A stretch of DNA of 57,327 nt from a virus (lineage: Duplodnaviria > Heunggongvirae > Uroviricota > Caudoviricetes), in the IMG/VR virus record IMGVR_UViG_3300034357_000765, one strand, 5' to 3'. Positions 30,987-43,101 of the stretch are shown piece after piece. The position numbers were made by a program, and so were the translations under genes. Below the pieces are notes generated by a model, which had not been told where the DNA came from, ran no database searches, and worked only from the letters and a program-made list of their open reading frames with translations. Numbering within the stretch: the first letter of the stretch is position 1; each line of letters begins with the position of its first letter.

Positions 30987-31001
30987 AAGTGTTTTTATTA
31001 T

Positions 31002-31011
31002 TTAATATATA
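31002..31011 (+). promoter_or_regulatory. phage-type promoter motif TTAATATATA
   Basis: Exact motif upstream of ATG 31037. Confidence 0.6.
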
Positions 31012-31036
31012 CAAAAATACTAAAATTTTTATCATT

Positions 31037-32194
31037 ATGAGAAAGTATAACCAGTTTATATTAGAAAAGCTTAACGAAGAAATAAAACTTATGTTAGAAG
31101 GACAACTTCATGCATCATCCGATTTTTTGAGAAAGCTTTTCGAATTGTCATTGGACAACGGAAAAACTGCAGAGATTGCTAGATTCATAAGAAAGTATAT
31201 AGAAGACGAACAGTATATAGAAGATGATGAAATAGCTCAGAACTTCTTCGACACTACAGACAAAGCAGATATGGTCAGCTTTACGATGAACAACAAAGTA
31301 CCTGAAGAGTGGGATTCTGAATATGATGCAGGACTGCCATATTCTATGGGTAGATCCGAAATGAAGATTGGAAAACTTGTTAAATATATCATAAACGTTT
31401 TAAATACATCATCTGGCGTAACAACATTTCGTAAGAAAGGAAAGTTTAGTGTAAGTGATAGTGAATTAGAAGCTTTCGTAAACGCATACAAAGCATCAGA
31501 ATCAAGCAGCAACATGGAGTTCAGACTTGTAAAAGGAGAAGAAATAGCCAAATACTACAATAACGAAAAATATTTAAGTGATAAAGGAAGTTTAGGTAGT
31601 TCTTGTATGGCAGAAAAAGGAAAGAAAACTTTTAAATTATACACTCAAAACGAAACAAAAGTTCAACTTTTGATACTAGTAGACAAAGAAACCGACCAGA
31701 TATCTGGAAGGGCATTGGTTTGGAAACTAAAGAATTCTCCGTGTGAGTCTAATTTTTTCATGGATAGAGTATATTCAAACAACGACTCTGATGTGATAAA
31801 ATTCAAAAAGTTTGCAAACGAAAACAGATTCCTATACAAGAAATATATGAATAGTCATACCAAAAGCAATGTTGAGTTTGTATATGGTGGTAAAGATGTA
31901 TATGGAGAAATAACCGTAAAGCTAAACGGAGACGTAGACAAAGCACCATTCGTAGACACACTTTGCTTTTTGAACAAGCAACAGAATACTCTTTCAAACC
32001 TTCCGTCGAAGGATTGTAATTGGTTACACTACACCGATGGAAGCTATGATGAATGTGGAACCTGCAAAGGTAAATGCTTCGAAAGAGATTTGGGTATTAA
32101 AGTAATCTGTAATAATTGTGGTGATGGTCATATAGCTTTGAAGAATTATGGAGTTGATACCTCTATAAATCTAAAATACGATTTACCGAATTAA
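31037..32194 (+). CDS. SCM / RALVW / MDRVY family protein with capsid-targeting-like N-terminus, 385 aa
   Basis: Start moved to ATG 31037 (MRKYNQFILE); paralogue of 20967..21935; C-terminal CxxCxxxC...CxxC. Confidence 0.7.
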   Translation: MRKYNQFILEKLNEEIKLMLEGQLHASSDFLRKLFELSLDNGKTAEIARFIRKYIEDEQYIEDDEIAQNFFDTTDKADMVSFTMNNKVPEEWDSEYDAGLPYSMGRSEMKIGKLVKYIINVLNTSSGVTTFRKKGKFSVSDSELEAFVNAYKASESSSNMEFRLVKGEEIAKYYNNEKYLSDKGSLGSSCMAEKGKKTFKLYTQNETKVQLLILVDKETDQISGRALVWKLKNSPCESNFFMDRVYSNNDSDVIKFKKFANENRFLYKKYMNSHTKSNVEFVYGGKDVYGEITVKLNGDVDKAPFVDTLCFLNKQQNTLSNLPSKDCNWLHYTDGSYDECGTCKGKCFERDLGIKVICNNCGDGHIALKNYGVDTSINLKYDLPN

Positions 32195-32346
32195 AAAGGT
32201 AAATCGTCAGAGAAGTCTTCTGATTCAGATTTGTTTATCTCTTGCATTAGAAGAGTAGCTTTATAATCATTCATCATTCTTAAAAAGTCTACCATTTTAG
32301 AAGCTTCAAGATTCTCTATCATATCGTATGCAATGTTGTCTATCAT
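32191..32346 (-). CDS. 51-aa protein ending in an SSB-tail-like EDFSDDLPF (missing from the ORF track)
   Basis: MIDNIAYDMIENLEASKMVDFLRMMNDYKATLLMQEINKSESEDFSDDLPF*; has its own TATCTTTG promoter. Confidence 0.75.
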   Translation of the reverse strand: MIDNIAYDMIENLEASKMVDFLRMMNDYKATLLMQEINKSESEDFSDDLPF

Positions 32347-32363
32347 ATCTCTGTTTGTTTTAA

Positions 32364-32371
32364 CAAAGATA
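32364..32371 (-). promoter_or_regulatory. Bacteroidota-type promoter -7 box TATCTTTG
   Basis: 17 nt upstream of ATG 32346, with an A-rich leader. Confidence 0.6.
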
Positions 32372-32379
32372 AGGAATCT

Positions 32380-32598
32380 TTAAGATTCGCCCAATATTTT
32401 CACTATCTTTTTATCTCTTTCTTCTTGAAGGTTCAGATATTGAAAATAGTCATATTTGTCTTTGAATCCGTGCTTGACCAAAATCTCTTCTTCGTGATCC
32501 AAGAACTCTCTTAAGCCAACCGTTTTCTCATTTAACATTTTACAGATGTATTCATAATCATCATAGTCATCATACATCTTACTAACTCCACTTCCCAT
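32380..32598 (-). CDS. hypothetical protein with C-terminal RDxKL tag, 72 aa
   Basis: Ends RDKKIVKILGES. Confidence 0.65.
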   Translation of the reverse strand: MGSGVSKMYDDYDDYEYICKMLNEKTVGLREFLDHEEEILVKHGFKDKYDYFQYLNLQEERDKKIVKILGES

Positions 32599-41385: not shown

Positions 41386-41393
41386 CAAATATA
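41386..41393 (-). promoter_or_regulatory. Bacteroidota-type promoter -7 box TATATTTG
   Basis: TTTG 20 nt upstream (41414-41417); heads the leftward accessory operon. Confidence 0.65.
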
Positions 41394-41441
41394 CGAAACA
41401 CAACTGACACCGACAAATATATAAACAAAAAAAAGTATTTA

Positions 41442-42311
41442 ATGAAATTCTCTAAAAACGTCGGACAGACACCGCTGGTAAAAATATCAGAAAGAATATT
41501 TGCAAAATTCGAAGGACACAACCCAAGCGGATCTTTAAAAGACAGAATGGCAGTCTATATAATAGATGATGCCGAAAAACAAGGACTTATAAAGAAAGGA
41601 GATACATTGATAGAAGCCACTTCGGGAAACTCTGGAATAGCATTTGCTATGCTTGGTGCAGAAAGAGGTTACAAAGTAATCATAGTCATGCCAAAGAACA
41701 TGAGTGAAGAAAGAAAAAAGATACTAAAGATATACGGAGCAGAACTTATTGAAGTAGAAGATGGAAGATTTGATGATGCAATTGCTTTAAGAGATAAAAT
41801 GGCCGAAGAGAATGGTTATTTCAATCCTAGACAATTTTCAAACCCACTAAACGCGAAAGCACACTACGAAACAACAGCACCAGAAATACTACATCAACAT
41901 ACAAACAGAATTGCCGCGTTTGTTTCAGGAACAGGAACCGGCGGCACTTTAATGGGAACTTCAATGCTACTAAAGATGCATCATCCTTTTATGAAAACGG
42001 TTGCTGTAGAACCTGCAGAATCTCCGGTAATGAGTGGTGGTAAACCAGGTCTTCATGGAATACAAGGGATTGGTGATGGTAGTAAGTTTTTAGTAGATTT
42101 GAATCTGGTAGATGACATAATGGTTATTTCAACACAGGATGCAATAGATAGAGCAAAAAGACTTGCTAGTGAGAATGGTTTATTTGTGGGAATCAGCTCG
42201 GGTGCAAATATATTGGCAGCTGAAAGACTTTTAGAAAAATATCCTGAAATGGAAGGAGATGTGATAACAATACTATGTGATAGAGGCGAGAGATATTTAT
42301 CGGTTTTATAA
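41442..42311 (+). CDS. cysK: cysteine synthase (PLP-dependent, CysK/CysM family), 289 aa
   Basis: GQTPLV, KFEGHNPSGSLKDR, EATSGNSG, GTGTGGT, IQGIG, GISSGAN, DRGERYLS; start moved to ATG 41442. Confidence 0.92.
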   Translation: MKFSKNVGQTPLVKISERIFAKFEGHNPSGSLKDRMAVYIIDDAEKQGLIKKGDTLIEATSGNSGIAFAMLGAERGYKVIIVMPKNMSEERKKILKIYGAELIEVEDGRFDDAIALRDKMAEENGYFNPRQFSNPLNAKAHYETTAPEILHQHTNRIAAFVSGTGTGGTLMGTSMLLKMHHPFMKTVAVEPAESPVMSGGKPGLHGIQGIGDGSKFLVDLNLVDDIMVISTQDAIDRAKRLASENGLFVGISSGANILAAERLLEKYPEMEGDVITILCDRGERYLSVL

Positions 42312-42312
42312 A

Positions 42313-42322
42313 TTAATATATA
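42313..42322 (+). promoter_or_regulatory. phage-type promoter motif TTAATATATA
   Basis: Heads the five-gene MKxLKxF cluster. Confidence 0.6.
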
Positions 42323-42351
42323 GTATATAAGAAAAAAAACAAAAAAGAAAT

Positions 42352-43101
42352 ATGAGAAATCTTAAAAAATTCGAAAACTTTGATGGCCTTGCTGCTGATG
42401 AAGAAATGGATCAAATGAACAACGACCAAATCTATGCAGATAGAGATGCCCAAGACGAACATGATACACATGATGCTCAATATTCTCAAAATGACGAAGA
42501 ACCAGTAGACGTTTTAGCTAGATTCGAAGAAGAATTTGGTGATAATGAACCATCTAACCAAGAAGTTATGGAATTCTATCACAAACTTAGATCAGAAGGT
42601 GTTGATGGTATAGAAATATTTGACACACTTTTAAGTAATAATAAAATAGGTGAAGGTGATGATGAGAACTACTCTGATGATGATGATAACTACGATCCAG
42701 AGCACGACGAAGATTTCGGTGCAATGAGAGCTGACGGTTCTGATGACTTAGGTTATGATGATGAAGAAGAAGGTCAAGAAGATCAACACTTCGAAGGATT
42801 GAAAAAGTTCTTTGAATTTAATGATATTCAAGAAGACGAAGAAGGATTTGACGAATTTGGTAATTATGATGGCTTAGACAAGAATCAGAGGAAAAAAAGA
42901 ATGCAAGAAGACGAAGAAGAAAGACAAGTTCAAGTGGACGAAGAAGGATTTGACGAATTTGGTAATTATATCGGATTTTCAGATAGTAACTATGATAAAA
43001 TTAACATCAACCCCAACATTGTACGTAAAGGAAAAGAAGGTCAAGAAGATGCTCAACAATACGAAAGACGTTCTTTAAAAAGATTCAACAACTTCAAATA
43101 A
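42352..43101 (+). CDS. very acidic, probably disordered protein with three LKxF motifs, 249 aa
   Basis: MRNLKKFENF, EGLKKFFEF, RSLKRFNNFK; D/E-rich. Confidence 0.72.
   Translation: MRNLKKFENFDGLAADEEMDQMNNDQIYADRDAQDEHDTHDAQYSQNDEEPVDVLARFEEEFGDNEPSNQEVMEFYHKLRSEGVDGIEIFDTLLSNNKIGEGDDENYSDDDDNYDPEHDEDFGAMRADGSDDLGYDDEEEGQEDQHFEGLKKFFEFNDIQEDEEGFDEFGNYDGLDKNQRKKRMQEDEEERQVQVDEEGFDEFGNYIGFSDSNYDKININPNIVRKGKEGQEDAQQYERRSLKRFNNFK
42835..42969. repeat. exact 33-nt intragenic direct repeat (42835-42867 and 42937-42969)
   Basis: gacgaagaaggatttgacgaatttggtaattat (DEEGFDEFGNY) twice. Confidence 0.9.

Follow-up and report, generated by a model that had tools for sequence, protein, structure and literature searches.

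Why a phage should encode a protein of 51 residues that ends like a bacterial SSB is the question raised by this locus. In bacterial genome maintenance, the C-terminal tip of SSB serves as the central docking code. It has been proposed as an antibiotic target, and many genome-maintenance enzymes have a pocket that receives its Pro-Phe-carboxylate. The window (the whole stretch of 57,327 nucleotides that was analysed) belongs to an IMG/VR viral record of 150 kb with a GC content of about 33%. The completeness of the record was estimated as 61%, which leaves 39% of the phage genome missing and makes the source a phage of jumbo size. In the ORF list, the coding sequence of the small protein is found on the minus strand at 32191..32346, with an ATG start and a stop codon at 32191-32193, and the C-terminus of the product (51 codons) reads ...SESEDFSDDLPF-stop. 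A 51-aa ORF with an SSB-like terminus had been proposed in an earlier note on this DNA. It was confirmed at this position, and more than 60 metagenomic homologues of 28-63 aa were found, in conserved synteny.

The acidic LPF end was unique to the small gene among the 1117 ORFs of at least 30 aa in the 150-kb record, and no ORF ending in an acidic LPF tip was obtained in 60 composition-matched simulated genomes. A large protein collection contained 46 homologues of 28-58 aa, a metagenome scan yielded 26 loci from freshwater and marine samples, and a profile search of 1.8 billion representatives returned 17 clusters, down to approximately 35% identity. In public metagenomes the small protein is predicted by gene callers and labelled 'hypothetical protein'. 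The phage GenBank collection gave neither a DNA match nor a protein match to the small gene, and the bacterial genome collection held no copy of it, so that no prophage or host link was obtained that way. Scans of IMG/VR by protein or profile gave no relative, although a direct search of related records did give copies without the tail. Longer fused forms of the small protein were searched for and none was found, which is a weak negative. Purifying selection was found to span the entire ORF (22 distinct coding sequences). Based on the homologues, the purifying selection and the conserved synteny next to NADAR, the small gene is a real gene and a member of a real family.

The tip, D-D-L-P-F, comprises residues 47-51 (32194..32208, minus strand) and is directly followed by the stop codon. 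When pN/pS was determined for each part of the 22 distinct coding sequences, the tip gave 0.008, the body 0.25 and the linker 0.57; the pS of the tip was 0.92, a saturated value. All five tip codons vary synonymously (e.g. Leu TTA/TTG/CTA, Pro CCT/CCG/CCA). Leu was present in all 22 sequences, Pro in 21, and the two Asp in 22 and 21, respectively. The stop codon came directly after Phe in 21 of the 22, showing that the free carboxylate on Phe is kept. The tip with its terminal Phe is the most strongly selected feature of the small protein. Remote relatives (approximately 35% identity) still end in NDLPF, LDLPF or DDLPF behind unrelated linkers. Conservation of the tail in homologues had been set beforehand as a check, and D-L-P-F was kept from 100% to approximately 35% identity, at the pN/pS given above.

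The end of the protein displays the features of the SSB C-terminus (SSB-Ct): a last Phe with a free alpha-carboxylate, preceded by Pro (-2), an aliphatic residue (-3) and two acidic residues (-4 and -5). As in the SSB family, a variable linker of low pLDDT leads to the acidic DDLPF-stop. Bacterial SSB-Ct (MDFDDDIPF in E. coli, ...DDLPF in Bacteroidota) is the same acidic-hydrophobic-Pro-Phe-carboxylate peptide, likewise preceded by a variable flexible linker. Seven of the last nine positions match between the E. coli SSB and the small protein (D-8, F-7, D-5, D-4, [IL]-3, P-2 and F-1). A beta-clamp-binding motif (QL[SD]LF or QLxLxL) was also considered for the tail and was rejected. That motif begins with a conserved Gln, and its hydrophobic core, Leu-x-Leu/Phe, contains no Pro, whereas the tail EDFSDDLPF has no Gln, keeps its Pro throughout and is strongly acidic.

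The helical body extends over residues 2-45 (32212..32343, minus strand) and includes the motifs AYDMIEN and DFLRMxDDY. AlphaFold2, run on 22 sequences, predicted a single helix for these residues and a low-confidence tail, with a mean pLDDT of 77. The invariant or nearly invariant body residues are Y7, D8, M9, I10, E11, N12, F21, L22, M24 and D27, and polar residues (Y7, D8, E11, N12, D27 and Y28) are among the conserved positions. Relatives carry a two-residue indel at residues 13-14, which suggests a possible turn in the body. The variable linker, residues 40-46 (SESEDFS; 32209..32229, minus strand), has indels and low pLDDT. Its length ranged from 7 to 13 residues in the homologues, with a mean pairwise identity of 0.33, and its sequences are unrelated across the family (SESEDFS, QSNSPVIIDIE, EFNETSNFSSDIE).

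The body gave no match to an OB-fold or to any Pfam, PHROGs, NCBIfam or PDB entry. No match of the small protein to PF00436, the bacterial SSB family, was detected, and the protein Atlas feature search gave no usable match. Profile searches of PDB and NCBIfam returned chance-level matches alone, to helical proteins (E ≥ 0.19). A homotetramer prediction with four copies, run with no controls alongside, scored 0.01, a value that counts neither for nor against oligomerisation. The single AlphaFold2 helix and the lack of an OB-fold family match agree with the short helical body without OB fold that had been described earlier. In bacterial SSB the tip is carried by an OB-fold DNA-binding tetramer, whereas here its carrier is a helix of 40 residues in which no DNA-binding domain was detected. 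The body lacks a DNA-binding fold, and the small protein cannot mark ssDNA as SSB does.

A TATCTTTG box, a -7 element of the Bacteroidota type TAnnTTTG, is located at 32364..32371 (minus strand), 17 nt upstream of the ATG. The sequence ATTG at 32392..32395 (minus strand), 20 nt upstream of the -7 box, is a possible -33 TTG element; it was read from the sequence, is weak alone and falls within the 3' end of the 72-aa ORF upstream. TAnnTTTG is the known -7 box of Bacteroidota promoters, the Bacteroides consensus being TTTG-N19-21-TAnnTTTG, and the spacing of ATTG to the TATCTTTG box fits this consensus. It was found that TAnnTTTG is enriched approximately 5-fold 10-40 nt upstream of gene starts in the phage genome (28 seen vs about 5 expected), the commonest variant being TATCTTTG. 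The box is also kept upstream of remote homologues in four contigs (L061, L064, L214 and L215). We infer its promoter function from the match to the known Bacteroides consensus. The promoter claimed for the gene thus corresponds to a signal that recurs across the phage genome, and this signal points to transcription by the host polymerase.

The probable host was evaluated from the phage's own genes. A cysteine-synthase-like (PALP) gene is found at 41445-42311 (plus strand), and its best five matches in 185,579 species genomes were all Bacteroidota MAGs from lakes and groundwater, with 60-64% identity. Identities of 51-56% were seen as well between this gene and genes of Thermoplasmatota and Marine Group III archaea. 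The promoter boxes and the cysteine-synthase-like gene are two independent, if indirect, lines of evidence, from which the host is likely a member of the Bacteroidota. The SSBs of these five candidate-host MAGs end in DDLPF, DGLPF, ADLPF or SHLPF. From these ends, the local SSB signature of the candidate hosts is LPF-COOH, in which Leu takes the place of the Ile of E. coli, and the phage protein carries its fullest form. RecQ and PriA were each found in all five candidate-host genomes, while Pol III chi and ExoI were found in none of the five. The list of possible targets drawn up in the earlier note is therefore to be shortened by Pol III chi and ExoI, with RecQ and PriA staying on it as candidates.

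The phage has an SSB of its own, with a different end. No bacterial-type SSB was found in the assembled part of the genome. A gp32-type SSB (PF08804) is encoded at L031:1357-2322 (G000:C1:58885-59850) and ends in ...DEDDFFADI. All 31 gp32 homologues of the clade in IMG/VR (L183-L213) end in [DE]DDFFxD[FLI], and none of the 31 has an LPF end. In the gp32-type SSBs of the clade, a conserved SSDDF[DES]F[ED]E block comes before this tip. From this alignment, [DE]DDFFxD[FLI] looks like a clade-specific SSB docking code. The 51-aa protein does not carry it and ends in DDLPF. The difference between the two tips indicates that two separately conserved C-terminal codes coexist, a phage code on the phage SSB and a host code on the miniprotein.

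The small gene is part of a cluster of small genes that also includes NADAR, Nudix and RNA or DNA ligases, and the gp32 gene is approximately 59 kb away. In the conserved order, NADAR comes first, in some loci with the 72-aa ORF behind it. The small gene is next, in some loci with a Vsr-like endonuclease inserted after it, and is followed by a convergent gene of about 390 aa, a small ligase and Nudix. In the window, the convergent gene encodes 401 aa (30989-32194, plus strand), and its stop codon overlaps that of the small gene. The TTAA at 32191-32194 holds both stops, the one on the minus and the other on the plus strand, leaving no space for a terminator between them. The 72-aa ORF that adjoins the small gene upstream (32380-32598, minus strand) has no family match; it is present in some relatives (L004) and absent from others (L002).

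Some relatives have lost the tip. In G006 (476 kb, rated 97% complete), G009 and several metagenome contigs, the same gene with the same promoter box is present and the stop codon comes right after the helix; downstream of these copies DLPF is encoded in no frame. They are still open over a pS of 0.4-0.6, with a pN/pS of 0.4-0.8 that indicates weaker selection. On a body tree with weak support, the tail-less copies group in one sub-clade, of which one member still ends in NDLPF. No copy of the small gene was found in three other related records. In the genomes with tail-less copies, no other DLPF-ending ORF replaces the tip. Five related genomes were scanned for the pattern D-[LF]-P-F-stop, and one real ORF end (peptidase-like, KDDFPF) was obtained, together with chance matches in tiny frames. 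The tail-less and absent states and the lack of a replacement tip indicate that the tip is an ancestral but dispensable add-on, that the gene is accessory and that the body keeps some function alone.

Two further observations were made at these loci. In three of the tail-less contigs, a tRNA-Cys (GCA) lies directly 3' of the gene (L061:1308-1379, L214:1609-1681 and L215:1419-1490), where the tailed loci examined carry the convergent gene of about 390-400 aa or a Vsr-like endonuclease. The peptidase-like protein of about 390 aa (L216:328-1515; G010:C1, ends at 159247) terminates in ...EFMKDDFPF, a near-variant of the SSB tip with Phe at -3, and is an enzyme unrelated to DNA metabolism.

Docking of the tip on the partners of host SSB appears to be the most economical reading and the most likely one. 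That the small protein is a host-directed mimic of the SSB tip is, at the level of sequence, a well-founded reading, given the conservation of the tip, its match to the SSB tips of the host lineage and the different tip of the phage SSB. The protein would consist of two modules, namely a helical body of approximately 40 residues and, behind a flexible variable linker, a D-D-L-P-F-COOH copy of the host SSB docking tip. After transcription from the host-type promoter, the free tip would become available, and its Pro-Phe-carboxylate would insert into the basic and hydrophobic SSB-tip pocket of at least one host genome-maintenance enzyme, RecQ and PriA being present. The helical body may add a second contact or self-association and thus raise the affinity. 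The host enzyme would then be uncoupled from SSB-coated host DNA, that is, inhibited or sequestered, and phage replication would be spared, as the gp32-type SSB signals through a different tip. We infer both that the tip docks on host enzymes and that this inhibits them, as well as the contribution of the body. That the small protein is an accessory, host-directed mimic which docks into and blocks host enzymes such as RecQ and PriA is our tentative preference, held at somewhat less than an even chance.

The inhibitory outcome is favoured because the gene is accessory and variable, because it is found among counter-defence-like and RNA-repair genes and not with gp32, and because the different code of the phage SSB would be immune to jamming. 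Small molecules that block SSB-partner contacts are reported to halt replication and recombination rapidly (PMC3594151). Against blocking, SSB is abundant and tetravalent, and the tip would be in competition with it as long as no affinity or valency comes from the body. In E. coli, a lone SSB tip binds its partners weakly. The body is also more conserved than a mere scaffold needs and it persists without the tail, which fits an adaptor at least as well. The decoy acting on the host SSB interactome that had been put forward in the earlier note was thus upheld in part: the tip is of the host type, conserved and different from the phage SSB tip, but a pure decoy does not predict intact copies without the tail, which imply some function of the body of its own. 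No support was found for the further proposal that the protein distracts SSB-sensing defences. The one system checked, DRT4, reads no DDLPF tip; a preprint describes that it senses a DUF2815-type phage SSB via ssDNA binding and contacts with its own C-terminal domain.

The main rival is that the protein recruits host enzymes and does not block them. The body would bind a phage component (the gp32-type SSB, a replisome or repair protein, or the product of a neighbouring gene) or DNA, and the tip would bring in a host SSB-partner enzyme, so that a host-type tip in trans would stand for the tip that other phages carry in cis on a gp32-type SSB. When IMG/VR was scanned for [DE]DDLPF-TAA, at least 80 ORFs were analysed, and among the matches listed the tip ends OB-fold SSBs and gp32-type PF08804 SSBs in cis (L078 and L096, DDDLPF), which is never the case for the gp32 of this clade. 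Among the matches listed, it also ends SpoVG-fold proteins (L084 and L148), a DUF968 HNH/Ref-like nuclease-like protein (L149) and small helical or coiled-coil proteins (L103, 74 aa; L141, 112 aa); these five are on unrelated viral contigs. The DDLPF tip thus seems to be portable across phage proteins. A tip in cis on gp32-type SSBs, SpoVG-fold and DUF968 proteins would most simply recruit, which speaks against blocking. The strong conservation of the body, polar residues included, also suits an adaptor, as does the fact that in one sub-clade its frame stays open although the tail is gone, from which it would seem to bind something by itself. However, the small gene does not belong to the replication module, and it varies between close relatives. 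The lack of a replacement DLPF-ending ORF in the tail-less genomes further argues that the function of the tip is dispensable and not part of a core replisome. Recruitment by an adaptor was considered unlikely, if still to be reckoned with. Among the matches listed, several proteins of about 83-100 aa that start with MAQDNGYQ...FKNDRK and have no Pfam match also carry [DE]DDLPF.

A second rival places the partner in the phage itself: the tip would dock on a phage-encoded enzyme of bacterial ancestry with an SSB-tip pocket, within phage DNA metabolism. In T7 gp2.5 and T4 gp32, an acidic tail that ends in or near an aromatic residue is a protein-protein connector, and such tails link the replisome proteins of these phages; moreover, 39% of this phage genome is unseen. 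Nevertheless, the clade already has a conserved SSB tip of its own, DDFFxD[FLI]. Pfam scans of approximately 50 of the larger ORFs revealed topoisomerase II subunits, a UvsX-like recombinase, a T4 RNase H-like exonuclease and ligases, and no RecQ-, PriA-, RecJ-, ExoI- or Ung-type gene. This explanation is improbable.

Very improbable is a third one, in which the LPF end is the degron of a short-lived regulator that is removed by ClpXP or a protease of that kind, and the resemblance to SSB has no bearing on this role. The C-terminal L-P-F of the ClpX degron is present in the small protein, and the phage encodes a ClpB/ClpC-type AAA+ protein, DnaK and DnaJ. In some Streptococcus mutans strains, a C-terminal LPF is enough to send GFP and SsbA to degradation by ClpXP, but the degron is strain-specific, being unrecognised in E. 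coli, S. gordonii and half of the tested S. mutans strains (PMC5143411). It has no known link to Bacteroidota, and its three residues leave the kept Asp-Asp and the further upstream acidic residues unexplained.

Returning to the mimic of the host SSB tip, it can be compared with known tip-bearing proteins. Phage SSBs with a host-type tip in cis (gp32-type proteins ending in DDDLPF, and OB-fold SSBs) are likewise phage proteins with a host docking code; they bind ssDNA and plausibly recruit host enzymes to phage DNA, whereas here the tip is on a separate miniprotein. In T7 gp2.5 and T4 gp32, the tail belongs to the phage SSB itself and its partners are replisome proteins of the phage; what corresponds to it here is the DDFFxD[FLI] tail of the gp32-type protein. 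Synthetic SSB-Ct mimetics, which are small molecules and peptides that block SSB-partner contacts (PMC3594151, PMC10143822), have the same proposed action, the filling of the SSB-tip pocket of the partners, which uncouples these from SSB; they are laboratory compounds, and the small protein would be a natural, genetically encoded counterpart of such inhibitors. An incomplete search of the literature turned up no account of a small natural protein other than SSB that carries the SSB tip as decoy or adaptor. What is new is the SSB-Ct docking motif in a minimal phage-encoded setting. It is possible, albeit on the unlikely side, that a linear-motif mimic jams or re-wires the whole SSB-partner network of the host while the phage replisome runs on an orthogonal DDFFxD[FLI] code, which the mimic leaves alone.

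Short linear motif mimicry is used by eukaryotic viruses, and a natural carrier of the tip without a DNA-binding domain would show that phages exploit the SSB hub in the same manner. The contrast of the host-type tip with the phage SSB tip suggests that an infected cell contains two orthogonal docking codes. If the reading is true, the small protein and the other phage proteins that bear the tip without being SSBs would be the first example of a general 'tip grafting' in Bacteroidota phages. To our knowledge, the SSB interactome of Bacteroidota is unstudied, and the small protein (51 residues, with or without its last Phe) would be a minimal reagent for finding which SSB partners matter there.

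The surroundings of the small gene showed some additional features. In relatives, a Vsr/DUF559-like endonuclease gene is inserted directly 3' of it (L002:6167-6610 and L004:6153-6599), and in one of them a LAGLIDADG/I-TevI-like gene is found nearby and NADAR is split into two ORFs (L004:3209-4006 and L004:5280-5749). The Vsr-like and LAGLIDADG/I-TevI-like genes represent homing-endonuclease traffic around the small gene. Outside the window, a PrkA/DUF444/SpoVR trio, DnaK, DnaJ, a ClpB/ClpC-type double AAA+ protein, a GAF-PAS histidine kinase and a T4 Rnl1-type RNA ligase are encoded in the regions G000:C1:20870-37258, 41390-42460 (L066, L067) and 74604-76730 (L068).
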